From: an uncultured Verrucomicrobiota bacterium
Lineage (GTDB): Bacteria; Verrucomicrobiota; Kiritimatiellia; CAIQIC01; Lenti-01
Assembly: GCA_938003985.1 (NCBI GenBank)
Contig: CALKWZ010000076.1
Location: 11,045-75,044 of the forward strand
DNA: 64,000 bases
Direction of reading: 5' to 3'
The number at the start of each line of letters is the position of its first letter. Positions within the stretch are counted from its first letter, which is position 1. Of this stretch, positions 5,469 through 58,325 are shown piece by piece. The translations under genes were made by a program, and so were the position numbers. The notes beneath the pieces are model-generated. The model was not told the DNA's origin. It saw nothing but the letters and a program-made list of their open reading frames with translations, and ran no database searches.

Positions 5469-7309
5469 GGGGCGGAAACGCCGGCGTCGGGCGCCTGGTT
5501 TTCGAATTGCATGCGGTAGAGCCGTTCGTAGATGCCGCCGCGGGCGAGGAGCTCCGCGTGGCGGCCGCGTTCGGCGATGCGGCCCCGGTCGAGCACGAGG
5601 ATCTGGTCGGCGCGCTGGATGGTGGAGAGGCGGTGGGCGATGGCGAAGACGGTGCGGCCCTGCATGGCCTCGTTGAGCGCGAGCTGGACGGCGCGCTCGG
5701 ATTCGGTGTCGAGGGCGCTGGTGGCTTCGTCGAGGATCAGGATGGGCGGATTGCGCAGGAGGGCGCGGGCGATGGCGAGGCGCTGGCGCTGGCCGCCGGA
5801 GAGCAGCAGGCCGCGTTCGGCGATGACCGTGTCGTAGCCCTGGGGCATGGCCTGGATGAAGTCGTGGGCGTGGGCTTTTTTCGCGGCCGCGACGACCTGC
5901 TCGCGGGTGGCGCCGGGTTCGCCGTAGGCGACGTTGTGGAACACCGTGTCGTTGAAGAGAATGGTCTCCTGCGTCACGAGTCCGATGTGGCGGCGCAGGC
6001 TTTCGAGGGTGAACTCGCGCAGGTCGCGGCCGTCGAGGCGCACGTGGCCGGCGACGGGATCGAAGAAGCGCGGCAGCAGATTGACCAGCGTGGTTTTGCC
6101 GGAGCCGGAGCCGCCGACGAGCGCGACGAGCTCGCCCGAGCGCGCGGCGAAGTCGATGCCGTCGAGCACTTGCGGTTTGCCGGCGCCGTAGGTGAACGAC
6201 ACGCCCTCGTAGCGGATTTCGGAAATGGGGCCGGCCAAGGGGCCGGCGCCGGGCAGGTCGGCGACGTTGTCGACCATGTCGAGGATGGCGAAGATGCGTT
6301 CCGCCGCCGCGCTGGACTGCTGGACGACGAGATGGACGCGGGAGAGCTTCTTGACGGGGTCGTACATCAGCACCATCGAGCCGAGGAACAGGATGATGTC
6401 GGAGAGTTCCAGCCCGGCGTGGCGGGAGTAGAGCAGGATGGCGCAGGCGGCCAGGACCGAGAAGAATTCCATGAGCGGATTGATCGCGGCCTTGGAGGCG
6501 GTGATCTTGATCTGCCGGCGGAAGAAATCGAAGCTGTGCTTCTCGAAGCGGGCCTGTTCGCGGTCCTCGGTGCCGAAGGCCTTGACGATGGCGGCGCCGC
6601 CGATGGCTTCCTGCTGGATGCTGGCGAGGTCGGCGATGCGCTCCTGGCCGGCCTTGGAGTGGCGGCGGACGCGCTTGCCGAAGACGGCGATGGGCAGCAG
6701 GCAGACCGGGAAGACCGCCAGGCTGATCGCGGCGAGGCGCAGGTCGATGAAGAACAGATAGGTGGCCGCCCCGAGCAGGACGAACGGCTGCTGGACGAGG
6801 TCGCAGATGACTTCGGTGATGCCGCGCTCGATGAGCTGGGTGTCGTTGAGCGTGCGCGACATCAGCTCGCCCGTGCGCGACCCGGTGAAGTAGAGCATGG
6901 GCAGATGCAGGATTTTGCCGAACAGGTCGTTGCGCAGGACCATGACGACGCGCTGGGCGACCCATTCGATGAGGTACTTGCTCAGGAAGAACGTGGCGCC
7001 GCGCAGCGCGATGAACAGCAGCAGCACCGCGAGCACGGCCACGGTCAGCAAGAGGTCGTGGTCCAGGTTGCCGCCGTACCAGCTCTGGAGCCAGGCGTCG
7101 GCCGATTCCTGCAGGCGCGTGGCGCGGCCGCCGAACACCTGCGCCATGCCGCCCTTGGCGGAGAACAGCAGGCCGAACACCGACCCGCCGAACAGCATGC
7201 CGAAGACCACGGCCAGCGCGAGCCGCCCGGCGTACGGCCGGGTGCGGGCGAGCAGCCGCAGATAGATCCGTTTTTCCTGGGCCGTCAGCTTGCGCGATTT
7301 GTCGCTCAT
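5465..7309 (-). CDS. msbA: MsbA-like ABC exporter (fused permease/ATPase, lipid A/lipid flippase type)
   Basis: 614 aa. N-terminal 6-TM domain, Walker A GGSGSGKTT, signature LSGGQRQR and Walker B ILILDEATSALD. Confidence 0.85.
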   Translation of the reverse strand: MSDKSRKLTAQEKRIYLRLLARTRPYAGRLALAVVFGMLFGGSVFGLLFSAKGGMAQVFGGRATRLQESADAWLQSWYGGNLDHDLLLTVAVLAVLLLFIALRGATFFLSKYLIEWVAQRVVMVLRNDLFGKILHLPMLYFTGSRTGELMSRTLNDTQLIERGITEVICDLVQQPFVLLGAATYLFFIDLRLAAISLAVFPVCLLPIAVFGKRVRRHSKAGQERIADLASIQQEAIGGAAIVKAFGTEDREQARFEKHSFDFFRRQIKITASKAAINPLMEFFSVLAACAILLYSRHAGLELSDIILFLGSMVLMYDPVKKLSRVHLVVQQSSAAAERIFAILDMVDNVADLPGAGPLAGPISEIRYEGVSFTYGAGKPQVLDGIDFAARSGELVALVGGSGSGKTTLVNLLPRFFDPVAGHVRLDGRDLREFTLESLRRHIGLVTQETILFNDTVFHNVAYGEPGATREQVVAAAKKAHAHDFIQAMPQGYDTVIAERGLLLSGGQRQRLAIARALLRNPPILILDEATSALDTESERAVQLALNEAMQGRTVFAIAHRLSTIQRADQILVLDRGRIAERGRHAELLARGGIYERLYRMQFENQAPDAGVSAP

Positions 7310-8232
7310 GCGCCGAGGCTTTCCAGGTAGTGCATGGCTTCGATGGCGGCGCGGCAGCCCTCGCCGGCCGCGGTCACGGCCTGGCGGTAGCGCGAATCGG
7401 CGACGTCGCCCGCGACGAACACGCCCGGCAGCGGCGTGCGGACGCCCGTGGCGACCAGGTAGCCGTTCGGATCCGTCTCCAACACGCCCGCGAAGGGCGC
7501 GCTGGCCGGCACGAGGCCGATGGCCACGAACAGCGCGCCGACCTCGAGGAGGCTTTCCGCGTTCGTCTTCACGTCGCGCAGCTTCAGGGCCGTCAGTTTG
7601 CCCTGCGCGGGATCGACGAGCGCGGCGACGACGGAATTCCAGTGCACTTCGATCTTGGCGTTCGCGAGCACGCGTTCGGCCATGATCTTCGAGGCGCGGA
7701 AGGCGTCGCGGCGGTGGATGAGATGGACGCGGGAAGCGAAGCGGGTCAGGAAGAGGGCTTCTTCCATGGCGGTGTCGCCGCCGCCGACGACGGCGATGGG
7801 CTGGCCGCGGTGGAACGCGCCGTCGCAGGTCGCGCAGTAGGACAGGCCGTGGCCGGCCAGTTCCGCTTCGCCGGGCAGGCCCAGCGGCCGGTGGCCGGCG
7901 CCGGTGGCGATGATCAGGGCGTCCGCGCGCAGCGCCGAACCGTCGGCGAATGTCAGGTCCGCGCCGCCGCCGGCGGCGGGGACGAACTGGACGACTTCGG
8001 CGCCCTGGAAGCGCGCGCCGAAACGCTCGGCCTGCTTGCGCATGGTGTCCATCAGCTCGTAGCCGGGGATGCCGTCGGGAAAGCCGGGATAGTTCTCGAT
8101 GAGCGGGGTGGTGACGAGCGGGCCGCCGGGGGCGGGGCCGTCGAGGACGAGCGGGGCCAGGCCCGCGCGCGCCGCGTAGATGGCGGCGGTCAGGCCGGCC
8201 GGGCCGGAGCCGAGGATGACCAAGGATTTCAT
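7306..8232 (-). CDS. trxB: Thioredoxin-disulfide reductase
   Basis: MKSLVILGSGPAGLTAAIYAARAG (FAD site), redox-active CATCDG, GGGDTAMEEA (NADPH site). Start taken at 8232 rather than the tracked 8268. The stop overlaps the msbA start (ATGA). Confidence 0.9.
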   Translation of the reverse strand: MKSLVILGSGPAGLTAAIYAARAGLAPLVLDGPAPGGPLVTTPLIENYPGFPDGIPGYELMDTMRKQAERFGARFQGAEVVQFVPAAGGGADLTFADGSALRADALIIATGAGHRPLGLPGEAELAGHGLSYCATCDGAFHRGQPIAVVGGGDTAMEEALFLTRFASRVHLIHRRDAFRASKIMAERVLANAKIEVHWNSVVAALVDPAQGKLTALKLRDVKTNAESLLEVGALFVAIGLVPASAPFAGVLETDPNGYLVATGVRTPLPGVFVAGDVADSRYRQAVTAAGEGCRAAIEAMHYLESLGA

Positions 8233-8302
8233 GCCCGGGAAAATACCCCGCCGCGCGGCCTGCGGCAATGCGGAAATGCCGCCGCCGGCCCGCGCCGCAG
8301 CG

Positions 8303-8385
8303 TTTTTACGTACTACGTAAAACGCGCCGAAAGTTTTTACGTTCTACGTAAAAATCCGGCAAACTTTTTACGTGCTACGTAAAAA
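8303..8385. repeat. Array of three AT-rich 20-nt palindromes, TTTTTACGT-nnn-ACGTAAAA
   Basis: Read directly: tttttacgtactacgtaaaa (8303), tttttacgttctacgtaaaa (8334) and tttttacgtgctacgtaaaa (8365). Centres lie at 8313, 8344 and 8375, so the spacing is 31 bp twice. The spacers are GC-rich and unrelated. Confidence 0.85.
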
Positions 8386-28278: not shown

Positions 28279-29109
28279 CTAAATCCCGCCCCGCGCCGCG
28301 CGCAGGGCGGGCAGGTAGGTTTGATCCAGGCTGTGGGGCGGCTGGCCGTCGGCCGAGGCGAATTCGATCGGTCCGCCCACGTGGCGATAGCCGAGCAATT
28401 CGGGCGGGACCTTCGTCACCACGTCGCGGCGGTTCGCGATCCGCCAGGCCGCGAGGCGCTGCCGCGCGAAATGCCGCGCCCAGCGCGCGGCGCCCGTCCG
28501 CGGCGCGGCGAAGGTGAACACCTCCAGCGCGCGGTACGGCAGGCCCCCGGTGGCGACGTCCATCGCCGCGAGCGCGGCCAAGGCCCCGCCGAGACTGTGG
28601 CCCGTCACCCGGATCCGCGACTCCGGCGTGGCGTGCGCTTCGAGAAAGGCCCGGATCGCCGGCCGGACCGATTCATAGCACCGGTGGAAGCCGCGGTGCA
28701 CGTGGCCGCCCTGCAGATCGTCGAAAACGGCGTCCCGCCGCGCGGCCATGTAGTTCGAAATCTTCTCGCCCGCGCTCTGCGTGCCGCGGAACGCGACGTA
28801 CAGGCGGCGGCCGGCGCGGGCGCAGACGCCCGCGGGGGTGGTTTCGGTGCGGGTCACGTAGCGCCGCCCGCCCTTGCCGCCCGATGCGCGGGCCGTCCGA
28901 TAGGTCAGCGTGCGCCAGAACGGCTCCTCGAAAACCAGATCCCCCAGCGCGGGGAGCGCGAACCGCATGGCCCTCGGCGGCGGCTTCCCGGCATCCGACC
29001 ACTGCTGATAAAGCCCATAGGCCGCCTCCACCAGCCGCACGCACGCCAACGCCTGGCGGACGGAAAACCCCTCCGGCAACGGCAACGCAATGGGAACGCC
29101 CCGGCTCAC
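28279..29109 (-). CDS. Class 3 lipase family protein
   Basis: 276 aa with VAFRGTQS.. and the nucleophile elbow VTGHSLGGALAALAA, typical of the Lipase_3 family. Confidence 0.8.
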   Translation of the reverse strand: MSRGVPIALPLPEGFSVRQALACVRLVEAAYGLYQQWSDAGKPPPRAMRFALPALGDLVFEEPFWRTLTYRTARASGGKGGRRYVTRTETTPAGVCARAGRRLYVAFRGTQSAGEKISNYMAARRDAVFDDLQGGHVHRGFHRCYESVRPAIRAFLEAHATPESRIRVTGHSLGGALAALAAMDVATGGLPYRALEVFTFAAPRTGAARWARHFARQRLAAWRIANRRDVVTKVPPELLGYRHVGGPIEFASADGQPPHSLDQTYLPALRAARGGI

Positions 29110-29487
29110 GGCCTCAACCTAGCCGCCTCGCCCGCCCCCCGGCAAGCCGAAACCCACCCGCCGTCCCCGCCCCCGCCGCAACCGAAACGCCGGGGTGGGG
29201 GCGCCGCGGCTCGCCACGGGCGCTCGTGATGCGACGAAAATTCCAGAATACAAACCTGTGCCGCCCCCACGAAATTATAAGACAGTAAACTTATGCGTCA
29301 TTTTGTGGAAATTTTCCGCATAACTTTCATTCAACGCTTTTACTGGTGTTCTCGCCCAATGCCTGCTAGTATCAGATTTGAGATGAAAGAAAATCCGGTT
29401 CATTCTCAAAAGACATGGATCTAGTTGCCGGAATATCTGCCAACAGGCACGGCAATAATGAGTTATAATTATTATCTTGCATAATCG

Positions 29488-29501
29488 GTATCAATTGATA
29501 C
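29488..29501. promoter_or_regulatory. Perfect 14-bp palindrome GTATCAATTGATAC immediately upstream of the toxin-like gene (candidate operator)
   Basis: Read directly. It ends 4 nt before the ATG at 29506, and AT-rich -10-like hexamers (TATAAT at 29464..29469) lie just upstream. Confidence 0.4.
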
Positions 29502-29505
29502 TCTC

Positions 29506-29859
29506 ATGAGCAGAAACTATGAGCAACCGATTCCGGCCGCATGGCGAAAAGCCGTTGTCAAGGTGCTTCGAAGCGGCGACAAGACTCGAATTATCAGCAC
29601 GGTAGAGTCGAAAAATGATTGGGAAAGCACGTTTCCGGAGAGTTGGTGGCATGACCGCCCTGAAGCCATGGCCCGGGCTTTGGATGTCGATGGCATTGTC
29701 GGAAAACATGTCACGGATATGGATCCGCCCTGCGAAGCCTATGCGTTTTGGTTCCACTACGAAAAACGACAGATGTACGGAAAAATCGGGCTCTTGCCCA
29801 ATGGCGACGTAGTCATCATCTTTTCGAGCCACGTTCCGCGAAAAGGGAAGAAATTATGA
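29506..29859 (+). CDS. Small toxin-like protein (tentatively MqsR-like) of a TA/TAC module
   Basis: 117 aa. The C-terminal ..YAFWFHYEKRQMYGKIGLLPNGDVVIIFSSH resembles the MqsR C-terminal strand pattern (..VYLKITVIHDVLIVSFKEK). It sits first in the operon, and its stop overlaps the next ATG (ATGA). The call rests on memory-based similarity only. Confidence 0.45.
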   Translation: MSRNYEQPIPAAWRKAVVKVLRSGDKTRIISTVESKNDWESTFPESWWHDRPEAMARALDVDGIVGKHVTDMDPPCEAYAFWFHYEKRQMYGKIGLLPNGDVVIIFSSHVPRKGKKL

Positions 29860-30386
29860 AGAAACGGAAAACCCCGCCTGTCCCGGGTTGGATGGCCATC
29901 ACCACGAAGCAGCCGGTGTTCATTCCCAATGCCACCGGCTACGGCGTGGCCGAAACCGTCATGCAGGAGGTTCCCGCCTGGAAGGATCCCAAGACGGGCC
30001 AAATCTACTTGGATGGAACGGCCCATGAGATTCTGGATGCGGTCAAAGCGCGGCACCTCGGAATTCTGCTGCCGGAGCAATTGCGGGATTTGCGGAATTC
30101 CATCGGGATGACCCAGAAGAAGATGGCCGAGTTGCTGCAGTTGGGGGAAAAGACCTGGACGCGCTGGGAAACCGGTGCGGAGCGGCCGTCCCGATCCATG
30201 AATCTTCTCCTGTGCGCCCTCCACGAGGGCAAAATCGATGTCGGCTATCTCCGCTCCAAGCGGCAGATGCCGGCGCTCGATGAGCTTGGACGATGGGAGA
30301 TGCCCGAACAAAAAGCAGGGGTTTCCTATCAGACTCCTAAACCAACTCTGGGAGAGCCCGATGAAAGCAAAACTGGCGCCGCTTAA
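29856..30386 (+). CDS. XRE-HTH antitoxin-like protein (MqsA-like, zinc-less) with C-terminal extension
   Basis: HTH region LLPEQLRDLRNSIGMTQKKMAELLQLGEKTWTRWETGAERPSRSMNLLLCAL parallels the MqsA HTH (..LSLTQKEAAEIFGGGVNAFSRYEKGNAQPHPSTIKLLRVL). An extra tail of about 45 aa follows the HTH (GYLRSKRQMPALDELGRWEMPEQKAGVSYQ..). Confidence 0.6.
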   Translation: MKKRKTPPVPGWMAITTKQPVFIPNATGYGVAETVMQEVPAWKDPKTGQIYLDGTAHEILDAVKARHLGILLPEQLRDLRNSIGMTQKKMAELLQLGEKTWTRWETGAERPSRSMNLLLCALHEGKIDVGYLRSKRQMPALDELGRWEMPEQKAGVSYQTPKPTLGEPDESKTGAA

Positions 30387-30846
30387 GTGCCATGGATACT
30401 TCGTTACGGGGTTGATGATTGCGGCGAATCCCGAATACGACAAAAAGAAACCGAACGCCCTGCTGTTTGGTGATCTGCAAATCGATTCGACGGCAAAGCC
30501 GGTATCCAAGAAGTTCGACGGAAGACTTTGGCAAGTCATCCTGCAGATGCAGCAGAACGTTGGGCCGGACAAAAACACGCCCTACAACTTTTCGGTCACA
30601 GTGGTGGGCCACTTCGAGGTTCATCCAAAGTATCCGGTCGGAAAAGCGCAGCAATTGGTGGAGATAAATGGCAGTTCAATTCTATACAGTTCTGCCCGGC
30701 AAATTTTAAGAGATGCCATGCACAACGGCCCGTTTCCGGCGCTTGACTTGCCGACGGTCAGCTTCTTTGATGCCGAGCCCGATTTGCCGGCGAAGAAAAT
30801 CGTAGCGGAAGCCTCGGCGAACTGCGGCGATAAAACCGGAAAATAA
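30361..30846 (+). CDS. SecB-like chaperone
   Basis: 161 aa. ..FSVTVVGHFEV..GKAQQLVEINGSSILYSSARQILRDAMHNGPFPALDLPTVSF parallels E. coli SecB ..[50 protein letters not shown]. Its start overlaps the antitoxin 3' end by 26 nt. Confidence 0.7.
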   Translation: MKAKLAPLKCHGYFVTGLMIAANPEYDKKKPNALLFGDLQIDSTAKPVSKKFDGRLWQVILQMQQNVGPDKNTPYNFSVTVVGHFEVHPKYPVGKAQQLVEINGSSILYSSARQILRDAMHNGPFPALDLPTVSFFDAEPDLPAKKIVAEASANCGDKTGK

Positions 30847-30876
30847 GGCCGCGTCCGCAATAAAAGGCCCCCCCCT

Positions 30877-33800
30877 ATGTCGAAGAGGAAAAAGCAGATC
30901 GCAAACGCTGAAGGTCAACTCAATCTGGCCCTGACGGGCGATACTTTTGCTGGGCCTGCTGAAACCAACGGCGTCTTTTCTCTCGCTTACCTGTTAAGAC
31001 AATTGGAGCAGTCGCCATCTTTCGCCGCCCAATCCGATGCGGCGGTCGCTTATGAATTGGTCTGCCGGTTGTATCGGCAACACGGCGTGGCTCTTAAAAG
31101 GCAGAATGAAGCCTTTACCTGTTCCACTTTTCTCGAACCTGTCCTGGACTCGCTCGGCTGGCATCGGATTCCCCAGCAATCTATGCCGAGCAGCATGGAG
31201 ACCCGGAAGCGTCCGGACTATTGTCTTGTCACCACTGAGCAAGCCTTCATGGAGGCATCGCGTGCCGATGCCGTGAAGTTATTTCAGCTTAGCGCCACCG
31301 TCTTGGAAGCTAAGAAATGGGGGCACCCTTTGGACCGGATGTCCTCCGGAGAAACCCCGGGTTGGTTCCCTAGCCAGCAAATCCAAGACTATTTGAATCA
31401 CGCGAAAGACGCGACGGGGCATCGGTTCTTCGACTGGGCCATCCTCACGAACGGCGACGAATGGCGTCTTTACTGTGAACAATCCGCCGTGGGGGCCTAC
31501 TTCAGTTTCCATCTCGTTCGCGATGGCCAGTTGTGTACGGAGGACGAGTTCAGGCTTTTCTTCACGCTTTTCCGGGCTGCCGCCTTTGATCGCTCGCCGG
31601 AAGGCCTTTGTTTTCTCGATTCCGTGCGCGAGCAGTCGTTGCGGGCGCAGGGCGAACTAGAGCTAAATCTACGCAAGCGCATCTTTGGCGTTCTTGAAGA
31701 CCTTGGCACTGCGTTCGCAAATCGGGAAGAAAACGGCTTGCACGAGGCTGATTACCCCAAGGTCTACGAAGTTTCCTTGGTCTTTCTATATCGCCTTTTG
31801 TTTGTTCTCTATGCGGAGAGCCGGGGGCTCCTGCCCGTTCGCGAGTATGGCGCAGGGGCGAATCGCCGTTATCTAAACGATTTTTCCTTGGCCCGCTTGG
31901 CTGGCAAGTTGCGCGACAGTTCCCATTATCAAGACAATGCGTTTTGCCAGCTATACGAGGAATTGCTGCACTTGTTTGAGCTGATTAACGGCACGTTTCC
32001 TTCGCGAAATGCGTCTCTCAAGGTCACCCGCTACAACGGCGGGTTGTTTAGTCTGCGGGCGCACGAAGAAATTGGACGTTGGCGGATCGGGGACCGGGAC
32101 TTGGCCGATATTCTCAGGCAATTGATATATGTCCAGCCGCCCGCTCGTTCCCGCGAGGCTCAACGACAGATCAGCACTCGGGAAGCGATTGATTACAGCA
32201 CGCTGGAAGTCCGCCAGCTCGGCGACATCTACGAGGGCCTGCTGGGCGCGCACTTCGAAAAAGTCGAAGATCGCCTTGAGTTGCGGAACGAGAACGGCGA
32301 AAACCATCGCTCCGGGATATTCTACACGCCCGATTGGATCGTCCAGTTCCTCGTAAACGAAACCTTGTTGCCGTTGCTGTCAGAAATCGAGCGGTCGCCC
32401 GACGTCCAGCGAGCCTTGCAGGCTCGTTCAGAGGAGCGAAAACGGGACAATTCTTTCGCGTTCGGCGTGCTCAACCTCAATCTCGTCGATCCCGCCATGG
32501 GCAGCGGCCATTTTCTGGTTCGCGCGACGGAATGGCTGGCCGACCACATCATGAGCCATCCCACGACCCAGCCGATGACGATGCAAATCATTGGTCAGGG
32601 TCAAGGCCAAATCAGCCGGGAAGAAATTATCGCGCGCGGCAAGATTCCCGTGGCCCCCGGAATTTCCCAGGAACAGGCGGAGAAGGCTTATTGGCGCCGC
32701 CGCGTCGTAGAGGCCTGCATCCATGGCGTAGATGTCAATCCCATGGCAGTCGAGTTGGCGAAACTCTCGCTGTGGCTGACTTGCATCGCGGCCGACGAAC
32801 CCCTCAATTTCCTAGACCACCACTTGCGAAAAGGCAATGCCTTGCTGTCGGTCGCCCCCGATGAGCTCAAGTTGGCGCCGGATGGACAGGAGACGTTCGA
32901 TCTCGGGGAAAGGCTTCACGACGTTCTCTCCGGCATTATCCGCGACACGCTTGCCATCGAAAGGCAACCTAGCACGGAAATGGAAGCCGTGAAGGATAAG
33001 GAACGGCTATGGAAGGATTTGAGGTTGCGGCTAAAACCTTTCCTTGATCTGTCGGACCTCTGGATTTCCATGTTGGATGGAGTGCCCCTGGTCGAGATGG
33101 AATATCTGTCCGTTGCACGTCTGTTGCTGGGCGACCAGACTCTTACAGGACCAGAAAAGCGAGATGCCAAGCGGCGCCTGGATTCCATTGCTGTAGCGCT
33201 AGCGTCGAAGAAGGCGGACCTGATGCCCTTCCACTGGCGGTTGGAATTCCCGGATGTTTTCTACGACGAAAGCGGGGAGGTATCGCCCCCGAACCGATGC
33301 GGATTCGATGCCATTCTCGGCAATCCCCCGTATGTGTCCATCCACACGGCGAAAGAGATTGGCAACCGCAAGATGCGCGATGCCTTGGAAAAACGCGCGG
33401 GCTATCTGGAAGACCTCTATGTCCATTTCACCGATCTTGGTTTCCAACTACTGCGCAAGGGCGGCGGGTTCGGGTTCATTGTATCGGACACTTTCTTTAC
33501 GCTGGCCTCCAAGTTCCGCATGCGAGAAATACTCCAGAGGAATTCGCTCGACTGGCTCGGTCAATGCGATCCCTTCGATGCCACGGTAGACGCAGCGGTT
33601 TTCGTTGCCCGCAAGCAGGTGCCCGAGGCAAACCATCGCTTCCGCTTTGTTCAAGCCAGGCCCCGCAAGCGACCCGACGGTACTCGCACCGTGCCCGATG
33701 AGAACTTGGAAAAACTGTCGCAAACCAATGCTCTTGCATGGAATGAACCCGCAACGCTGACGCCGTTCGGCGATGTCTTCCATGCCACGGTGGCCGAGTT

Positions 33801-35352
33801 GCGGCTTCATGAAATTCCGCTTTCCTTGCATGCCGCGGCCCACAAAAAGGTATTTTTCGAGCCCCGTCCTGGCACTCTGCACCTTTTCGACCGCTTCAAC
33901 GCCAATGTGAAGGAGCTTGTTGCGGAATGGTGGGAGAAGATTGAAGACTCTCGCGAATTCAGCGCCAACCTTCCTGAAATCCAAGCCTATCACCGCACCT
34001 TGCGCCCCGGCGACATCTCGCTAGTCGGGCTTGTGGCGGAAGGTGGGCAAGGAATGCGCACGGCCAACAACGCCCGTTTTCTAGCCTATCTCGACGGCAC
34101 CCCGCAGGCAGAGGAAATCAAGGAGAAGTCGCGGGCATGGTCTGCCTCTTGGCTGGCGAACGAACGGGTTGGATCAACTTTCCGCGAACTTTTGCAACAA
34201 GCGGGTGGGGACGCCGCTCGACCGACTGCCAACCGGCCCGCATGGGAAGCCGCCGTGCATGGTCTTCGCGAGCGATTCACGCCCGCCCAACTGGGCTTGG
34301 GCCGAACCTTCCTTTTCCGCATTGCGCCGCCGGACCTCGTTGCCGGGGCAGAGGATTTCGCCTATTCCTTCTTGCGCCGCAAGGCGGAACTCCTTGTGCA
34401 TTGGCAGGGACGGTCGGAATTCATGGGCTTTTGGGACGACAAGATGGAGATTGGCGGGAATTTTGTGGCCCATTCGGACTGTCGCAAGGCCAAGACCATT
34501 TCGGACGCGGATTTCTGCGAGCTTTGCCAGCACCTGCAGCTTTGGGTCAGACATGAAAACGCCGTGAGGAAACCGTCGCAGCGCATTCCTAAAGAAGCCA
34601 TAGGCTTGCGATCTAGTGAAGACTACTCCGATCCGGCTGACGCTCCGCGAATCGCCGCGATTTATAATGGCCTTTTGGGCCGCGCCCAATATGTCCCATT
34701 CCGGAAGGGGGACCCCGAAGGAAGCCGGTGGCTGGACAACGAACCGCTCTTTTGCGATTGGTCAAAATCATCTGTGGATTGGCTCTCAACAGATAATTCT
34801 GCACGCTGGCAGGGTCATCGATTCTTTTTCCTTCCAGGTGTTACATGGACCGCCGTAGCTAATCATGTCGCGCTTAAATCAAGGTTCCAAGAGCCATGCG
34901 TATTTGATGCCGATAGTATGAGGCTTACTCCGTTACCAAGCACTCTTTCGGCTGAAGCATTCGTGGCGATTCTTAACAGCGATGTCTTCAGTTACTTCAA
35001 GATGCGATTCGTTCAACACACGCAAAAGTGGGAAATCGGGAATTTGCGTCAGATGCCCATTGTGATGCCAAATAAGAGGCAACAGGACTCGCTTGCGAAA
35101 CTGGCCTCGCTTGCGATGGCCGCAAAACGGCATGAGTTTTCGGGAACATCCCCCGACAATGATTTGGTTGCGCGTGTTCGCGTAATTAGTGCGCGGCTGC
35201 GTGCGGATGGGCCAGATTATTTGCAGCCCAGCGCCCAAGGATTATTGCTGGCAGGCCCCAACGATTGTCTGGAAGTGATCGAAAAAGCCATCAACTGGGA
35301 AGCCGAAAAACTCTACGGCGTTGAAGGCCTTGGCCCATTCGACGAATTTTAA
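30877..35352 (+). CDS. Type IIG restriction-modification fusion enzyme (N-terminal PD-(D/E)xK nuclease + gamma-class N6-adenine MTase + PglX/TaqI_C-like specificity region)
   Basis: 1491 aa.
- N-terminal HsdR_N-like nuclease motifs RKRPDYCLV..VLEAKKWG..QIQDY..ILTNGDEWRLY.
- MTase motif I VDPAMGSGHFLV and motif IV ILGNPPYVS.
- C-terminal YVPFRKGDPEGSRWL..FFFLPGVTWT..ILNSDVFSYF..EIGNLRQMPIV, as seen in PglX/MmeI-like enzymes. Confidence 0.8.
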   Translation: MSKRKKQIANAEGQLNLALTGDTFAGPAETNGVFSLAYLLRQLEQSPSFAAQSDAAVAYELVCRLYRQHGVALKRQNEAFTCSTFLEPVLDSLGWHRIPQQSMPSSMETRKRPDYCLVTTEQAFMEASRADAVKLFQLSATVLEAKKWGHPLDRMSSGETPGWFPSQQIQDYLNHAKDATGHRFFDWAILTNGDEWRLYCEQSAVGAYFSFHLVRDGQLCTEDEFRLFFTLFRAAAFDRSPEGLCFLDSVREQSLRAQGELELNLRKRIFGVLEDLGTAFANREENGLHEADYPKVYEVSLVFLYRLLFVLYAESRGLLPVREYGAGANRRYLNDFSLARLAGKLRDSSHYQDNAFCQLYEELLHLFELINGTFPSRNASLKVTRYNGGLFSLRAHEEIGRWRIGDRDLADILRQLIYVQPPARSREAQRQISTREAIDYSTLEVRQLGDIYEGLLGAHFEKVEDRLELRNENGENHRSGIFYTPDWIVQFLVNETLLPLLSEIERSPDVQRALQARSEERKRDNSFAFGVLNLNLVDPAMGSGHFLVRATEWLADHIMSHPTTQPMTMQIIGQGQGQISREEIIARGKIPVAPGISQEQAEKAYWRRRVVEACIHGVDVNPMAVELAKLSLWLTCIAADEPLNFLDHHLRKGNALLSVAPDELKLAPDGQETFDLGERLHDVLSGIIRDTLAIERQPSTEMEAVKDKERLWKDLRLRLKPFLDLSDLWISMLDGVPLVEMEYLSVARLLLGDQTLTGPEKRDAKRRLDSIAVALASKKADLMPFHWRLEFPDVFYDESGEVSPPNRCGFDAILGNPPYVSIHTAKEIGNRKMRDALEKRAGYLEDLYVHFTDLGFQLLRKGGGFGFIVSDTFFTLASKFRMREILQRNSLDWLGQCDPFDATVDAAVFVARKQVPEANHRFRFVQARPRKRPDGTRTVPDENLEKLSQTNALAWNEPATLTPFGDVFHATVAELRLHEIPLSLHAAAHKKVFFEPRPGTLHLFDRFNANVKELVAEWWEKIEDSREFSANLPEIQAYHRTLRPGDISLVGLVAEGGQGMRTANNARFLAYLDGTPQAEEIKEKSRAWSASWLANERVGSTFRELLQQAGGDAARPTANRPAWEAAVHGLRERFTPAQLGLGRTFLFRIAPPDLVAGAEDFAYSFLRRKAELLVHWQGRSEFMGFWDDKMEIGGNFVAHSDCRKAKTISDADFCELCQHLQLWVRHENAVRKPSQRIPKEAIGLRSSEDYSDPADAPRIAAIYNGLLGRAQYVPFRKGDPEGSRWLDNEPLFCDWSKSSVDWLSTDNSARWQGHRFFFLPGVTWTAVANHVALKSRFQEPCVFDADSMRLTPLPSTLSAEAFVAILNSDVFSYFKMRFVQHTQKWEIGNLRQMPIVMPNKRQQDSLAKLASLAMAAKRHEFSGTSPDNDLVARVRVISARLRADGPDYLQPSAQGLLLAGPNDCLEVIEKAINWEAEKLYGVEGLGPFDEF

Positions 35353-35374
35353 CGGCCACTGATGACCGGAGATG

Positions 35375-35942
35375 TTTATAGGCGCGCAGCTCATCGAGGG
35401 GGAAGTCGCCAGGGGTGCGTTCGTAGGTCCAGAAGGCAGAGTCGTTGAGGGGGGCGAGTTTGTACGAGGTGAAATTGCGCGATGCTGTTGCCGAGTGTAT
35501 ATCAATCCCGCCTGACTGCATTATCAAGGTAATCAAGGATTCTCCGATTGGTATATTTGCCGGCAAGCTCGAACAGGTGCATGCCGCGCACGTATTCAAC
35601 GATTTCGCCGGTTGAGAAGGGCGGAGTTGCCTGATCTTCACAATCGACTTGCCAGTCGATGCCTTCGGTTGTTTGGAGTCAGATGGCGATCATCTCGTAC
35701 TGCTCCAGCTTCTCGACGTGGGCAAGAATGAGGGCATCGATCGTATGCTCGTAGACGTCCCACAAGACGGACTGCTCGTATTGGATTTGGACGCAAACCT
35801 CTTCCCACGTGTTTTTGAGACCCGTGTCGTCGCCAAGTGCAAGGGAATCGGTCAATTTTCGTAGCTCACGAGCGGTTTTTCGGGCGATGGCGGACGACAC
35901 CCGCAGGGCCAACGCGCGCACAACCTGTTCTTCGACATTCAA
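35375..35942 (-). pseudogene. Degraded gene: in-frame TGA plus a +1 frameshift, with a RAMA-like C-terminal remnant paralogous to the neighbouring gene
   Basis: The reading frame from TTG 35942 (..NVEEQVVRALALRVSS..EKLEQYEMIAI) hits TGA at 35679..35681. It then continues in the same frame as LQTTEGIDWQVDCEDQATPPFSTGEIVEYVRGMHLFELAGKYTNRRILDYLDNAVRRD, stopping at 35502. A shifted frame continues IDIHSATASRNFTSYKLAPLNDSAFWTYERTPGDFPLDELRAYK. This aligns with the C-terminus of the 35945..36637 protein (VRRDGTIRYAGKLYNSPSLAA..NGWEFWNYQRAPGDWVPLDALRS). Confidence 0.4.
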
Positions 35943-35944
35943 CG

Positions 35945-36637
35945 CTAGCTTCTCAGCGCGTCGAGGGGGACCCAGTCGCCGGGGGCGCGCTGGTAGTTCC
36001 AGAATTCCCAACCGTTGCAGGTGGGGCGTTTGCAGGCGGCGGCGGCGGCGAGCGAGGGCGAGTTGTATAGCTTGCCGGCGTAGCGGATGGTGCCGTCGCG
36101 GCGCACGGTGGCCTTGAGGATCTTGCCCTTGAAATGGGCGCGGAGGGGAAACGCCGTGGTGACGTATTTGGCGAGGGGCGGGGTGCGGCCATCTTTCTGT
36201 TCCTTGGCGGCTTTGCGGCGAGCGGGATCGGGCGCGGTGAGCATGTCGAAAACGGAATCTTCGAAATCCCGCTTCATGTCGCGCAGGAAGATGGGGCGGA
36301 GGTCGCTGGACCGGGCGAATTGTCCCTTCTGCTTGTTGCCGGCGGGCTTGACGGTGCGGAGGATGAGGGCTTCCAGCTCGCGCAAGTGGCGGTCGCCGAT
36401 GGTGAGGTAGACGGAGAAGCGGTCCCAGGAGTCGGCGTGACGGTCGCGGAGGTGCTGCTTGAGGCGGTTGCGGAGGTTGGTGGCGAGGCCGACGTAGTAG
36501 AGCTTGCCCTTGCGGTAGAGGACGTAGATGCCGTGGCGCCCCCGCACGTACTGGCGGATGATGTTCTGGTATTCCTCGAGGGCTGCGCGGGAGATGTTTT
36601 CGAGGTGCTGGCAAACGAGCTGGGCGTTGCGTTTCAT
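35945..36637 (-). CDS. GIY-YIG nuclease-domain protein with C-terminal RAMA/DUF4357-like domain
   Basis: GIY-YIG core RHGIYVLYRKGKLYYVGLATNLRNRLKQH. C-terminal ..GKLYNSPSLAAAAACKRPTCNGWEFW resembles the restriction-enzyme/methylase-associated (RAMA) domain signature. Confidence 0.65.
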   Translation of the reverse strand: MKRNAQLVCQHLENISRAALEEYQNIIRQYVRGRHGIYVLYRKGKLYYVGLATNLRNRLKQHLRDRHADSWDRFSVYLTIGDRHLRELEALILRTVKPAGNKQKGQFARSSDLRPIFLRDMKRDFEDSVFDMLTAPDPARRKAAKEQKDGRTPPLAKYVTTAFPLRAHFKGKILKATVRRDGTIRYAGKLYNSPSLAAAAACKRPTCNGWEFWNYQRAPGDWVPLDALRS

Positions 36638-36754: not shown

Positions 36755-36847
<93 letters not shown>

Positions 36848-37077: not shown

Positions 37078-37163
37078 TGGTACCGGAGAAGGGACTTGAA
37101 CCCATACGCCCGTGAAGGCGCCAGATTTTGAGTCTGGTGCGTCTGCCATTCCGCCACTCCGGC
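37078..37163 (-). tRNA. tRNA-Leu (anticodon CAA), CCA encoded
   Basis: The reverse complement reads GCCGGAGTGGCGGAATGGCAGACGCACCAGACTCAAAATCTGG..GGGTTCAAGTCCCTTCTCCGGTACCA. Anticodon loop CTCAAAA. Long variable arm. Confidence 0.9.
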
Positions 37164-40365: not shown

Positions 40366-40473
40366 ATTTTCACGTCGTACGTAAAAACTTTTTACGTACG
40401 ACGTAAAACCCGTTCAACGTTTTTTACGTTCCACGTTAAACGCGCGGAACGTATTTACGTTCCACGTAAAAAT
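40366..40473. repeat. Array of four AT-rich palindromes of the TTTACGT-nnn-ACGTAAA family
   Basis: attttcacgtcgtacgtaaaaa, ctttttacgtacgacgtaaaac, ttttttacgttccacgttaaa and tatttacgttccacgtaaaaa. Centres lie at 40377, 40399, 40431 and 40462. Located between the convergent LacI-regulator and glycosyltransferase genes. Confidence 0.85.
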
Positions 40474-55230: not shown

Positions 55231-55245
55231 CGCGAGAGCAGCGCG

Positions 55246-55680
55246 TCAGGGGGCAGGGGACCCGGTATTTTGCGACGGGCACCCTGGACCCGCTGGCGCG
55301 GCATTTTTCCTGCGGTGGACGTAATTCTTCGTCACTCGAAACAGAAGTGCGGCCGAGATGCACCAGAGCAGGGTTGCGCCAGCCAAGCCGCCCCACGTCC
55401 GCGGATCGAGTTCCGGCCGGCATGAGACAAGCCGGGCGCCGACGACGGGCGCGGCAATGAAAACAGGACCAAAGAGCAGCCACATCCCGACCAGGACAAT
55501 CGTCTTCGGCGGACCGGAAACGGCCTGCCGGTAGGCAAACCCTTCCGACTGAATCCGCTCCCACGGCCCGGTAACGGACATGGCGCTGAGCGGCGCCCCG
55601 CATTTCACGCAGAAATCGCGCTCCGCCTCGTTTCTCTCAAGACAGTGCGGACAAGCGATTCGACTTTCGGGTTCGCTCAT
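55246..55680 (-). CDS. Zinc-ribbon membrane protein
   Basis: N-terminal CPHC..x..CVKCG zinc ribbon followed by hydrophobic helices. Confidence 0.55.
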   Translation of the reverse strand: MSEPESRIACPHCLERNEAERDFCVKCGAPLSAMSVTGPWERIQSEGFAYRQAVSGPPKTIVLVGMWLLFGPVFIAAPVVGARLVSCRPELDPRTWGGLAGATLLWCISAALLFRVTKNYVHRRKNAAPAGPGCPSQNTGSPAP

Positions 55681-55769
55681 TTTCTTTTTTCCTATCGAAC
55701 TCCACCTTCACCGTTTTCAGTCTGCGTCTACGCGGGGTGAAATACGGTACGAGGCGTGGTTGGGTGTTC

Positions 55770-56306
55770 CTAGATTTGTCCTCCGCATCTGATGAATAGT
55801 GCGCCTGTGCCAACCGTGTTTGACGAGGAGGGCGTGAACTTGATTCGGACTGTGTACGCCTGTTTGTCTTGGGGATCGAAGAAGCTCTTGTCGAGGTCGT
55901 ACAGATTGAAATCGTCCCGCGACCCGGATGCCCAGATCATTTGATCCGTATTCAGGCTGACTTCCCGGAGAGAGTCGCCTGCAGTGCCCAGGAGTGTGAG
56001 GTTCCAGTGCCCAACATTCGTCTTCTCCTTCGGGCCGTTGATCCCCAAGTAAAGCCCGCAATAGGGGAGAGTTGGCAGGTTGGCGAGCGTGTATTCTTCG
56101 GATGTGGGGCTGTTGAGAGGGAAGGACGGGAAGGATATCTGGTAGCCTCTGATCTTGTACCAGAGGAAGCGAAGGGAAATGTCTTTCATCTGACCATCTC
56201 CCCGATAGGCTGCGATCTCTTGCTTCAGATATGGTCTGTGCTCTGCGGACGCGCAAGCGCATAGCAACACGCACAAGGCCAACGCAATTGCCGGTCTGTA
56301 TTTCAT
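55770..56306 (-). CDS. Hypothetical lipoprotein (lower-G+C islet)
   Basis: MKYRPAIALALCVLLCAC lipobox. 178 aa. AT-richer codon usage than the surrounding genes. Confidence 0.55.
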   Translation of the reverse strand: MKYRPAIALALCVLLCACASAEHRPYLKQEIAAYRGDGQMKDISLRFLWYKIRGYQISFPSFPLNSPTSEEYTLANLPTLPYCGLYLGINGPKEKTNVGHWNLTLLGTAGDSLREVSLNTDQMIWASGSRDDFNLYDLDKSFFDPQDKQAYTVRIKFTPSSSNTVGTGALFIRCGGQI

Positions 56307-56328
56307 GATCTTCGCTTCACGTCACGGG

Positions 56329-57021
56329 TCAGCGGACCCGACACCTTGTGGCGGGTACGCTGGACCCGCTTGTTGGCCCTTTTTTGTTCCCAACGATCAT
56401 ATACTGCATGTCATCATATCGTTTAGCAGTGCTCAATAATCGGTCATAAGTCATGATCTCAATATCATGTTCATATCCATAACTGGATCGGATTATGTCG
56501 TTTTGTTCTGACAGTGCCGTTCTACGACCGATCATAATATAGTACTTGTAGGTTATATATGTACGCGGATCGCGTAGATACTTGCCAGAGAAGGTGAGGG
56601 GTTCTTTGTCACGTGGTTTATTGAACACGTCGGTAGTTCGCGCTGCGTCAGCAAGCTGATTCCGAAAATCTGTTGGATTAGCATGTACATATCTTGCCCA
56701 GTCGCCGATTTGTTTTTGCGCATGCCGGAGTCGTGGAGATTCGATACCTTTAGAATTATATATGGCGTCGTCAATTGGTTCTAGCTCAAGGAAGTGAACC
56801 TTCCAGCCAGTCGAATATCCCTGAAGAAGCATAAAGTCGCATCTAAGCGATTTTCCAATGCCAAATTCTGGCAATACATAGTGCGCGTGTCCCCCACAGT
56901 CAAAAAACGCCCAATAGAGAAATTCTGGATTTGCCTTCAAAAATCGCGCAATGCCGCGTTCCCCCGTCGAAGAGGCGAGCGCTTTCGCTACAATAGAAGT
57001 GTTATTCATAATTGTGGCCAA
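56329..57021 (-). CDS. DUF4263-type (Shedu SduA nuclease-domain-like) protein, minimal form
   Basis: ..RFLKANPEFLYWAFF..HYVLPEFGIGKSLRCDFMLLQGYSTGWKVHFLELEPIDDAIYNSKG.ESPRLRHAQKQIGDW matches the DUF4263 pattern (FL..nP.ll..; D-F-hl; hhhhElK-like strand; A..Q). The canonical Lys after E-x is not obvious. TTG start at 57021, with an alternative ATG at 57009. Confidence 0.5.
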   Translation of the reverse strand: MATIMNNTSIVAKALASSTGERGIARFLKANPEFLYWAFFDCGGHAHYVLPEFGIGKSLRCDFMLLQGYSTGWKVHFLELEPIDDAIYNSKGIESPRLRHAQKQIGDWARYVHANPTDFRNQLADAARTTDVFNKPRDKEPLTFSGKYLRDPRTYITYKYYIMIGRRTALSEQNDIIRSSYGYEHDIEIMTYDRLLSTAKRYDDMQYMIVGNKKGPTSGSSVPATRCRVR

Positions 57022-57029
57022 CAGTTTTA

Positions 57030-57068
57030 TTCACCCTCCTTCAAGGAGGCTTTACGTGGCGGGGTGAA
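57030..57068 (-). promoter_or_regulatory. 5'-leader hairpin embedding the Shine-Dalgarno of the DUF4263 gene
   Basis: The minus-strand RNA would read UUCACCCCgccacguaaagCCUCCuugaaGGAGGGUGAA. The GGAGG that serves as the only obvious RBS can pair with CCUCC (5-nt loop), and the flanks UUCAC/GUGAA extend the stem. Confidence 0.4.
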
Positions 57069-57085
57069 TTTTCCTGAGTGGCAAA

Positions 57086-57114
57086 AGGATAGCGGAAAGG
57101 TGGGGGTGGGTCAA
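57086..57114 (-). promoter_or_regulatory. Candidate sigma-70 promoter for the DUF4263 gene
   Basis: The minus strand reads TTGACC (57109..57114), a 17-nt spacer, then TATCCT (57086..57091). Confidence 0.3.
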
Positions 57115-57800
57115 TGGCGCAACGGGCTGCGGGCTTGGGGAATAGGGAGCGGGCGGGCCGGCGTGAACCGAGCGCGAAGGAGGCTTTATGCCGGTTTGGG
57201 GGCGCCGCGCAATGCCTCCTTCGCAAAAGGGGGCTCGCGGGAGGCATTTTTCGGACGAAAATGACCGCGGAGGGCGTTTTCAGGGCCGAAAATGGCTCGC
57301 AACGGGCCTGGATACGGCAAAAACGGGTTGGAAACTACGAAATGCGCGAAAAACGCGAAATTTCGGGTTTGGATCCGAAAACGGGGATTTCTAACCGCAA
57401 ATGAACGCAAATGGACGCAAATGAGGGGTGAAAAACGGCCTGAAAGCGGGGGGGGGCCGAAAAGGTCCATTTGCGTGAATTTGCGGTCCATTTTCGGCTG
57501 GATGAGGCCCGCGGAGGCAAAAAAACGCGAAAAAACGCCTCGCAACGGGCTTGGGCGGGCAGAAAAAGGGGCTATTCAGCAGGAAAACGGGGAATTTGCA
57601 GGAAAACAGGAGGGGATGGAGGGCTTCGTCCTGTTTTCCTGTGTGTTTCCTGTTTTCCTGCTGGGCTGTTGGGGGTGATCGGACCTGATTCACCCACGGG
57701 GCCAGACTTCGCCAAGGCTTCGTCCGGCAGGCAAGCCCGTGGGGGTCTTGGAGGGCGGAAGAGAGAGTCTGAATATCCAATAACCAATGTCGCGAAGGCG

Positions 57801-58325
57801 CTATTCGACTTCTTGCATGAGGCGGAGGGCTTCGGAGGTGCCGAGCGACTGGAGGCGCGCTTCTTTGCGCTCTTTTTCTTCCAGCGCCTTGAGGATGGCT
57901 TCCTGGAGGGTGTAGTCGCTGCCCGTGGCCTGGATGGCCGCCAGGTCCGCCGGTTCCGCGTTTTTGGCCTGCGCCATGGCGATGCCGGCCTGTTTCAGCC
58001 GCTGGCGCTGGCGCTCGACCGCGTCGCGCAGGCTGTCCAGCTTGCGCTGGGCGGAAGCGGCCTTTTCTGCGCCGGTGTAGGCCGCGTCGACGTCCGCGAG
58101 CAGGTCGCGCAGTTCTTCCGTCGCCGCGCTTTTTTCGGGGCCGGGCTCCATCCGGTTGATCTGCCGGATCAAGAGATCGGCCTGGCCGAACCGGGCATCG
58201 AGTTCGTCGGCGCGGGTCGCGGCGGCCGGCGGCGCGGCCGAATCCGGCGGCGCATCCTGGGCCAGGGCCGGAACCGTTCCGGACAGGAGCGCCAGAAGAA
58301 TCGTCGCCGGAATTCGCTGCGTCAT
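57801..58325 (-). CDS. Secreted coiled-coil protein, function unknown
   Basis: Start MTQRIPATILLALLSGTVPALAQ at 58325. The rest is charged and helical (..RKLDSLRDAVERQRQRLKQAG..). Confidence 0.55.
   Translation of the reverse strand: MTQRIPATILLALLSGTVPALAQDAPPDSAAPPAAATRADELDARFGQADLLIRQINRMEPGPEKSAATEELRDLLADVDAAYTGAEKAASAQRKLDSLRDAVERQRQRLKQAGIAMAQAKNAEPADLAAIQATGSDYTLQEAILKALEEKERKEARLQSLGTSEALRLMQEVE

Follow-up and report, generated by a model that had tools for sequence, protein, structure and literature searches.

A gene-free region of about 780 bp (57022-57800), dense in repeats and hairpins, has been analysed in a stretch of 64,000 nucleotides from an uncultured Verrucomicrobiota bacterium (contig CALKWZ010000076.1, positions 11,045 to 75,044), the whole of which is referred to here as the window. 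The host is a Kiritimatiellia genome of ~69% G+C, and the region is situated on a minus-strand gene line, upstream of a gene encoding a Shedu nuclease. The region is probably a set of gene-less foldback elements and their relics, piled up at an insertion hotspot between the native flank of the upstream gene and the promoter and leader of the Shedu gene. A foldback is understood here as two inverted arms made up of short words that recur once per turn of the DNA helix (~10 bp). The 780-bp spacer would be a patchwork, in which foldbacks lie between the 3' flank native to the upstream gene and the promoter and leader of Shedu, and the phased words may be binding sites of a protein by which the element is moved or processed. 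In two of the modules, B and C, full-size relatives enclose a small gene of the GxxExxY family (PD-(D/E)XK fold) between like arms, and the copies in the window would have lost this gene or never carried one. Insertion into intergenic DNA with short target duplications is seen in another genome and is suggested here for module C only. The foldbacks would be selfish passengers of an island and not a functional partner of Shedu; if they are transcribed, their long stems could incidentally serve as substrates of RNase III or as barriers to read-through.

Repeats of the region and the foldback family

All the words and inverted repeats listed in the original prediction, which had read the region as three modules (A, B and C) each headed by an opening word, have been found in the sequence, and their abundance and folding greatly exceed what chance would give. 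Module A has the repeats 57174-57187 / 57211-57224 and 57211-57219 / 57240-57248, the latter followed by TTTT. In module B three 10-bp-phased copies of CGCAAATGNN (57396-57425) stand opposite 57465-57498, and in module C two arms of 35 nt (57577-57611 / 57629-57663) are 83% complementary. The opening word CGCAACGGGC is present at 57118 and 57298 as described; the third copy starts at 57541 and not at 57540, and the trailing G assigned to the word is missing from the copy at 57118, which goes on with TGC. Exact CGCAACGGGC occurs five times in the window, three of them in the repeat region, which also has four of the five window copies of CGCAAATG and four of the seven copies of CAGGAAAAC (0.41 expected in the window). 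The 800-bp bin of the region has 13 words of the type CG[CA]AAA[ATC], against a mean of 1.15 per bin. The 9-mers of the region concentrate nowhere else in the window, so the words are not low-complexity sequence common to the genome. The absence of a credible open reading frame (ORF) is also borne out: none of the eight ORFs scanned (45-128 aa) matches Pfam at E<=0.1, and a reading of the region as a pseudogene or as a source of small proteins was rejected for this reason.

The features that relate the region to other loci (denoted by L numbers) are as follows.

57385-57498, no strand assigned: module B, a gene-less foldback of the family with three CGCAAATGNN words; left arm 57385-57424, right arm 57465-57498
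57570-57670, no strand assigned: module C, gene-less, its two foldback arms at 57577-57611 and 57629-57663 (inverted repeat; fold z-score -5.2)
57320-57674, no strand assigned: block homologous to repeat units of Verrucomicrobia bacterium UBA2281 (L085), 340 nt covered at 69-91% identity

The inverted repeat of module B (57394-57416 / 57465-57487) is 91% complementary. An nhmmer search with a profile of 139 arms matches both arms, 57385-57424 on the plus strand (E 1.1e-11) and 57492-57465 on the minus strand (E 1.6e-5), and these are the sole matches of the profile below E=1 in the window. The family is defined by a pair of inverted arms that contain three or more CGCAAAT words each, phased at 10 bp, and have A-rich...TTT-R-N-C as their outer consensus, and module B fits this definition. 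As the arm profile matches the window at module B alone, module B is, by its sequence, a bona fide member of the family described below.

The pattern CGCAAATN3CGCAAATN3CGCAAAT was scanned over 596 Gb of species-representative genomes and has been identified at no fewer than 120 loci, where chance would give ~0.3 by our own estimate with equal base frequencies. According to the record titles, the hosts include Gamma- and Alphaproteobacteria, Desulfobacterium, Myxococcales, Planctomycetota, Verrucomicrobiota, Hydrogenedentes, Armatimonadota, Methylomirabilota, Bacteroidota, Chlorobiota and Clostridia. Among the matches listed, some genomes give many contigs, notably a Lamprocystis and a Thiodictyon metagenome-assembled genome, and the arms are mostly in plus/minus pairs, with 59 pairs under relaxed arm matching that mostly measure 66-250 bp end to end. 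The contexts that were read are intergenic, and one element lies directly upstream of dnaJ. The arm consensus, read outward, has an A-rich segment, TTT and R-N-C, followed by CGCAAATGAA CGCAAAT(G/A)AA CGCAAAT. The two arms co-vary: a variable base, two positions outside CCGCAAAT, agrees between the arms in every one of 19 strictly matched pairs, being T in 10 pairs, G in 6 and A in 3.

Foldbacks with other phased words (CACAGATGAA, TTCCGTG and CACGGATNNA) have been observed nested in or beside CGCAAAT-type elements at L035, L044, L096, L107 and L122. The different word types cluster at these five loci as they do in the window.

The family behaves, as judged from its copies, as mobile DNA. Three Lamprocystis copies (L027, L031 and L095), which lie in unrelated flanks, share 95-96% identity across ~170 bp that include the loop. 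Two of them have perfect 5-bp direct repeats (ATCAA and TTCAG) and the third has CTCAA with an offset of 1 nt.

The iteron-like 10-bp phasing of the words, together with phased A-tracts, is consistent with a relic of a plasmid or phage sequence, either a partition site or, as had been envisaged in the original prediction, an origin of replication, where iterons would be bound by a protein of the Rep or Par type. In 27 viral contigs from IMG/VR (L262-L288) the word CGCAAATNNN forms direct arrays of at least three copies, and an inverted pair is present in only one case. The contexts read are intergenic, and in a group of phage contigs of ~40 kb an AT-rich stretch that resembles a promoter by eye follows immediately downstream of the array. 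Because of these direct arrays CGCAAATNNN may well be a protein-binding site on mobile DNA. In the window the words stand in inverted arms, and a Pfam scan of the seven neighbouring genes gave no Rep, Par or integrase domain. The same arms are dispersed in chromosomal intergenic DNA and inside chromosomal operons of many phyla, as exemplified by the copy upstream of dnaJ, and a genome has several of them, arranged in short inverted pairs and accompanied by target duplications. A BLAST search of the region against plasmid and phage collections gave a single match, of 36 nt, to module B; it is in a Thiodictyon plasmid, where (CGCAAATGNN)x3 likewise stands opposite inverted copies. An origin or partition relic is hence very improbable. 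The earlier notion of a mobile-element relic with iteron-like protein-binding words survives in a more specific form, that of gene-less foldback elements, and its replication-origin part is not supported.

Module C is abutted by the direct repeats GGCTATT (57570-57576) and GGCTGTT (57664-57670), read from the sequence, which match at 6 of 7 positions; such a match at fixed positions has a probability of ~0.001 by our own calculation, and a target duplication is suggested. When pairs of CAGGAAAAC words spaced 9-11 nt were sought in metagenomes, most matches were single and had no inverted partner nearby, but clear homologues of module C also came up, of which those at L169 and L152 are gene-less and that at L201 carries a gene. 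Gene-less homologues are present in L085 too, where a span of 1.5 kb has five arms of the C type and two of the B type; the longest alignment joins 57461-57662 to L085 5741-5918 (E 1.7e-21). The neighbours of the L085 block, an AbiEii-like nucleotidyltransferase and a DUF456 protein, are unrelated to the genes of the window. The AbiEii-like gene (6276-6848) is bracketed by direct repeats of ~220 bp (5990-6210 and 6905-7130), each comprising a B-type arm, a C-type foldback and a lone C-type left arm.

Module A and the opening words make up the remainder of the repeats.

57174-57248, no strand assigned: module A, two overlapping hairpins of AAGGAGGC words, found by inverted-repeat search and identical in the strain variant L002
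57298-57307, plus strand: second CGCAACGGGC word, preceded by CGAAAATGG; resembles a decayed B-type word
57541-57550, plus strand: third CGCAACGGGC word, in the stretch aligned with the L085 segment that contains CCGCAAATGGGCGCC

Module A is unique to this genome at the sensitivity used, with no match in L085. The CGCAACGGGC opening words line up with CGCAAATGGGC in a relative, and look like decayed B-type words, since the third corresponds to CCGCAAATGGGCGCC in L085, as read within the alignment given above, and the second is preceded by CGAAAATGG. Compared as possible tandem duplicates of one module, the three units headed by these words have the opening word in common and otherwise align poorly (58% mean column identity, with large gaps). 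Units 2 and 3 have a common left-arm layout of GAAAA-N-GGGG / N-T-N-T-T-C / word-word-word / GGGG.

The GxxExxY cargo of related elements

Three B-type elements of 465-507 bp (L081, L104 and L117) enclose a gene for a GxxExxY protein of the TIGR04256 family (130-146 bits). Clustering of the ORFs around 120 of the B-type loci showed no protein in more than nine loci, and the GxxExxY protein (3 loci) and one GNAT / DUF1778-like pair are the only ones encoded between arms. The latter is found at L115 (3556-4675), where a B-type arm pair 1.1 kb apart surrounds an apparent GNAT-toxin / DUF1778-antitoxin pair, as judged from the translations only; it could be cargo, or the arms could be two unrelated solo arms.

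A C-type counterpart has been identified at L201, where a 133-aa protein (PF13366, E 7e-38) is encoded between the C-type arms AGCAGGAAAACAGGAAATTTACAGGAAAACAGGA / TCCTGTTTTCCTGCAAATTTCCTGTTTTCCTGCT and the element is wedged between two host genes. In L104 (6204-6711), L117 (5544-6007) and L201 (1114-1582) the start codon of the GxxExxY gene lies inside an arm or right against it. Two of the three B-type carriers have it inside the arm, for example as an ATG within CGCAAATG, and the annotated N-termini of the proteins at these loci are therefore partly translated repeat.

Similar arrangements are present around GxxExxY genes on plasmids of other phyla. The gene of a Bacteroides plasmid has inverted arms of 10-bp-phased CACAGAGGA-type words, and that of a Sphingomonas plasmid, located between fabD and fabG, has inverted arms of CGCGAAGG-type words ~9-10 bp apart. 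A Treponema copy has one 16-nt inverted arm on each side. In Gemmatirosa an empty CGCGGATNN foldback adjoins a GxxExxY gene. The repeats that flank the genes of Fusobacteria and Persicobacter are direct and not inverted.

The window itself encodes no such cargo: a tblastn search with three GxxExxY proteins gave no match in the 64 kb, and the loops measure ~40-48 nt in module B and 17 nt in module C. PDDEXK_3 is listed as 'function unknown' in a superfamily survey. No solved structure was found for GxxExxY by sequence, and no description of its association with hairpin arms was found in the searchable literature. We consider it a speculative and rather improbable proposal that GxxExxY proteins and their hairpin arms constitute an undescribed cross-phylum class of selfish elements, in which the protein would bind the phased words and cut the ends, and clusters of elements and their gene-less derivatives would act as recombination hotspots that swap single defence genes in behind resident promoters. 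The defence genes exchanged in this manner would be Shedu here and the AbiEii-like gene in L085.

The Shedu locus as a variable insertion site

On the minus strand the gene order is an endonuclease I gene, a gene for a secreted protein of 174 aa, the 780-bp gene-free stretch and the Shedu gene of 226 aa, 3' of which are a lipoprotein-like gene, a zinc-ribbon gene and a phosphatase gene. The stop codon of the 174-aa gene is at 57801-57803 and the ATG of Shedu at 57009. The G+C content falls to 40-58% from ~55680 to 57800, against ~69% around. The features of the locus are listed below.

55232-57796, minus strand: 2565-bp insertion relative to the closest syntenic relative, L257, which has 148 bp there
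56329-57009, minus strand: stand-alone Shedu nuclease gene, 226 aa, with the SduA_C domain only (PF14082 E 7.8e-14; PADLOC SduA E 1.9e-21)
57029-57069, minus strand: hairpin ATTCACCC ... GGGTGAAT enclosing CCTCCTTCAAGGAGG in the Shedu leader, read from the sequence and identical in L002
57086-57114, minus strand: sigma-70-like promoter match TTGACC-17-TATCCT facing Shedu, from a consensus scan only (1 site vs 0.5 expected)
57108-57126, minus strand: 19-mer CCCGTTGCGCCATTGACCC, 100% identical over 19 nt to the L257 spacer (E 1.3e-6)
57737-57800, minus strand: native 3' flank of the upstream 174-aa gene; homology with the syntenic L261 reaches 57737

The insertion comprises the repeat region, Shedu, the lipoprotein-like gene and the zinc-ribbon gene. 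In L257, whose endonuclease is 87% identical, the 174-aa gene is followed by a 148-bp spacer (7263-7410) and then by the phosphatase gene; its homology covers 60498-57797 of the window and is picked up again at 55231. L257 has no island at this hotspot, and L259, L260 and L261 have different cargo. L259 and L261 retain remnants of module C at 61-70% identity that fold no better than shuffled sequence (z-scores +0.8 and -1.6); folding better than that of shuffled sequence persists in the copies of the window, L085 and L169, with z-scores of -5 to -7. At 86% identity, the module C of the window is nearer to the L085 copies, which are not syntenic, than to those that are. The locus is a variable hotspot, in which foldbacks have been present for some time and decay in some lineages.

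The 19-mer CCCGTTGCGCCATTGACCC, the sole piece of the L257 spacer in common with the window, includes the -35-like TTGACC as well as the first CGCAACGGGC word. Between this promoter-like 19-mer and the start codon of the phosphatase gene sit the genes for Shedu, the lipoprotein and the zinc-ribbon protein. Because the cargo of the insertion (55232-57796) lies between these two points, it may have been placed behind a resident promoter.

The gene carrying the SduA_C / DUF4263 nuclease domain (56329-57009) is a Shedu gene, and in the Pfam and PADLOC models used Shedu is this single protein. We know of no report of an RNA component of Shedu. A search of representative genomes with the protein gave 546 relatives, the closest being 54% identical, and a word-indexed search gave the self-match only. 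The upstream contexts were compared in four contigs with other short Shedu genes, 36-51% identical (L003, L004, L005 and L007). In L003, which has the closest homologue (51% identical), gene-free T-tract-rich DNA extends upstream for more than 500 bp to the contig end, the only such case among the four; the upstream gaps in L004, L005 and L007 are just 40-210 bp. The gene-free DNA of L003 has, at the contig end (150-240), words of GCGC plus a T-tract and a GCGCACTTTT / AAAAGTGCGC hairpin.

The long upstream DNA of L003 would be in keeping with a structured non-coding RNA that is a partner of the adjacent Shedu nuclease, one of the options of the original prediction, or a regulator of it, and so would the folding of both strands of the region well beyond shuffled sequence, with z-scores of -9.0 (plus) and -5.5 (minus). 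The short gaps of the other three contigs argue against such an RNA. A search of Rfam gave no family in the region at gathering or permissive thresholds: the window has three tRNAs and no rRNA at the gathering threshold, and at E<=10 the region gives sub-threshold matches to generic hairpins (microRNA precursors) on module C, with one sub-threshold match to a small RNA in a flanking gene. The strain variant L002 encodes a Shedu protein identical to that of the window, and its DNA matches at 99.5% identity as far as 57360 and diverges beyond; no B arm is detected in it, and one C arm has a 21-nt deletion. In the family stems of 13 co-directional contexts the G-U mismatches are not biased to the transcribed strand (20 vs 15, a test that is not informative). 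An RNA partner is therefore most unlikely. The repeat region is not tied to Shedu, because the B/C block of L085 stands by unrelated genes, because L002 combines the identical Shedu with no detectable B arm and a shortened C arm, and because the syntenic relatives keep a decayed module C only.

A present role in cis has also been considered, in which the hairpins stop or process read-through from the operon and the phased A-tracts either tune the activity of the Shedu promoter or recruit a silencer that acts on foreign DNA. The position of the region is suited to it, between a co-directional operon of the endonuclease and 174-aa genes, free of convergent genes, and the promoter-like site 57114-57086. 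The A-tract words at ~10-bp phase, upstream of the -35, would be predicted to curve the DNA, and L260 and L261 have gene-free T-tract-rich DNA at the equivalent place. Conservation of the hairpins fails in L002, L259 and L261, none of the region is present in L257, and the stems are not followed by a canonical intrinsic terminator on the sense strand. Such a role is thus unlikely.

Several observations weigh against an origin of the region as a pile of foldbacks and relics. Module C is better preserved in the window than expected of a neutral relic, and 5 of its 6 stem mismatches are G-U-compatible on the plus strand, which would also suit a structured RNA; this leaves room for selection or recent gene conversion at module C. 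The T-tract words at the hotspot (window, L260 and L261) are mostly on the gene-sense strand, which a random pile of palindromes would not predict. Module B has no clear target duplication, neither B nor C has a second copy within the 64-kb window, and ORF clustering revealed no transposase or other protein that recurs near the 120 B-type loci analysed. Module A and the segment 57118-57320 have no homologue outside this species and are not explained by the foldback family.

Two other features of the window have been observed. A second stretch of low G+C (~55% vs 69%) at 29000-36000, with an ORF of 1491 aa (30877-35352), adjoins tRNA-Ser (36757-36847) and tRNA-Leu (37078-37163) and looks like another horizontally acquired island. 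Intergenic tandem arrays of three copies each, with a period of ~31, are present at 8295-8385 and 40367-40471. Their unit is the palindrome TTTTTACGT-N4-ACGTAAAAA, with GC-rich linkers between, and they represent a second, unrelated repeat family that resembles repetitive extragenic palindromic (REP) sequences or an operator array.

Relation to known elements and significance

The foldbacks resemble miniature inverted-repeat transposable elements (MITEs) and other foldback elements in being small (mostly 66-250 bp), non-coding and intergenic, with long terminal inverted repeats, and in having several near-identical copies in one genome in different flanks, with 5-bp target duplications. They differ in that no autonomous transposase partner is recognised near 120 loci of the family, and the ORF clustering gave no partner that has matching terminal repeats and a transposase. 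Each arm is built of at least three phased 10-bp words and not of a single terminal repeat. The loops differ wholly between genomes while the arms are common across phyla, and the sole recurrent cargo is the GxxExxY protein of 125-140 aa.

REP sequences and the doublets mobilised by REP-associated tyrosine transposases (RAYT), known as REPINs, are likewise dispersed intergenic palindromic doublets that form long hairpins, with many copies in some genomes. REP sequences are lineage-specific, and a 5' GTAG is their hallmark. The arm consensus derived here has no 5' GTAG and the arm sequence is common across phyla; no protein recurs near the elements, although no search was aimed at RAYT genes specifically.

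The attC sites of integrons are also imperfect, variable hairpins beside single genes, often of the defence type, at a variable locus, a situation that recalls the AbiEii-like gene of L085 between its ~220-bp direct repeats of B- and C-type modules. The core sites R''/R' of attC are RYYYAAC / GTTRRRY. They are missing at the ends of modules B and C, read by eye, and an attC reading was rejected. No integrase is encoded among the scanned neighbours, and the target-site duplications point to transposition and not to site-specific recombination.

The nearest described analogue of the GxxExxY foldbacks is, by its architecture, the intervening sequence (IVS) of 23S rRNA. The IVS of Coxiella burnetii is a selfish element of ~430-500 nt, in which a terminal stem of ~28 bp surrounds a small S23p ORF, and the stem is excised from the transcript by RNase III (PMC4990558). 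In both cases terminal inverted repeats enclose one small, decay-prone ORF of unknown function, and origin and mobility are unresolved. The foldbacks differ in their location in intergenic DNA and not in rRNA (the window has no insertion in a 23S rRNA helix), in their arms of phased iterated words, and in their cargo, which, where present, is predicted to have a PD-(D/E)XK fold and not the four-helix bundle of S23p.

The foldback family is apparently widespread and undescribed in the searchable literature. For the biology of Shedu there is no support for an RNA partner, and the long upstream spacer should not be read as a part of the system. Annotators have reason to flag such hairpins as mobile DNA and not as candidate riboregulators. 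The phased-word foldback family is common to at least a dozen phyla, and the widespread GxxExxY / PDDEXK_3 proteins, to which no function has been assigned to date, are now linked to a defined DNA architecture. This suggests a testable hypothesis for the GxxExxY family, namely that its members may bind or cleave their own flanking arms.

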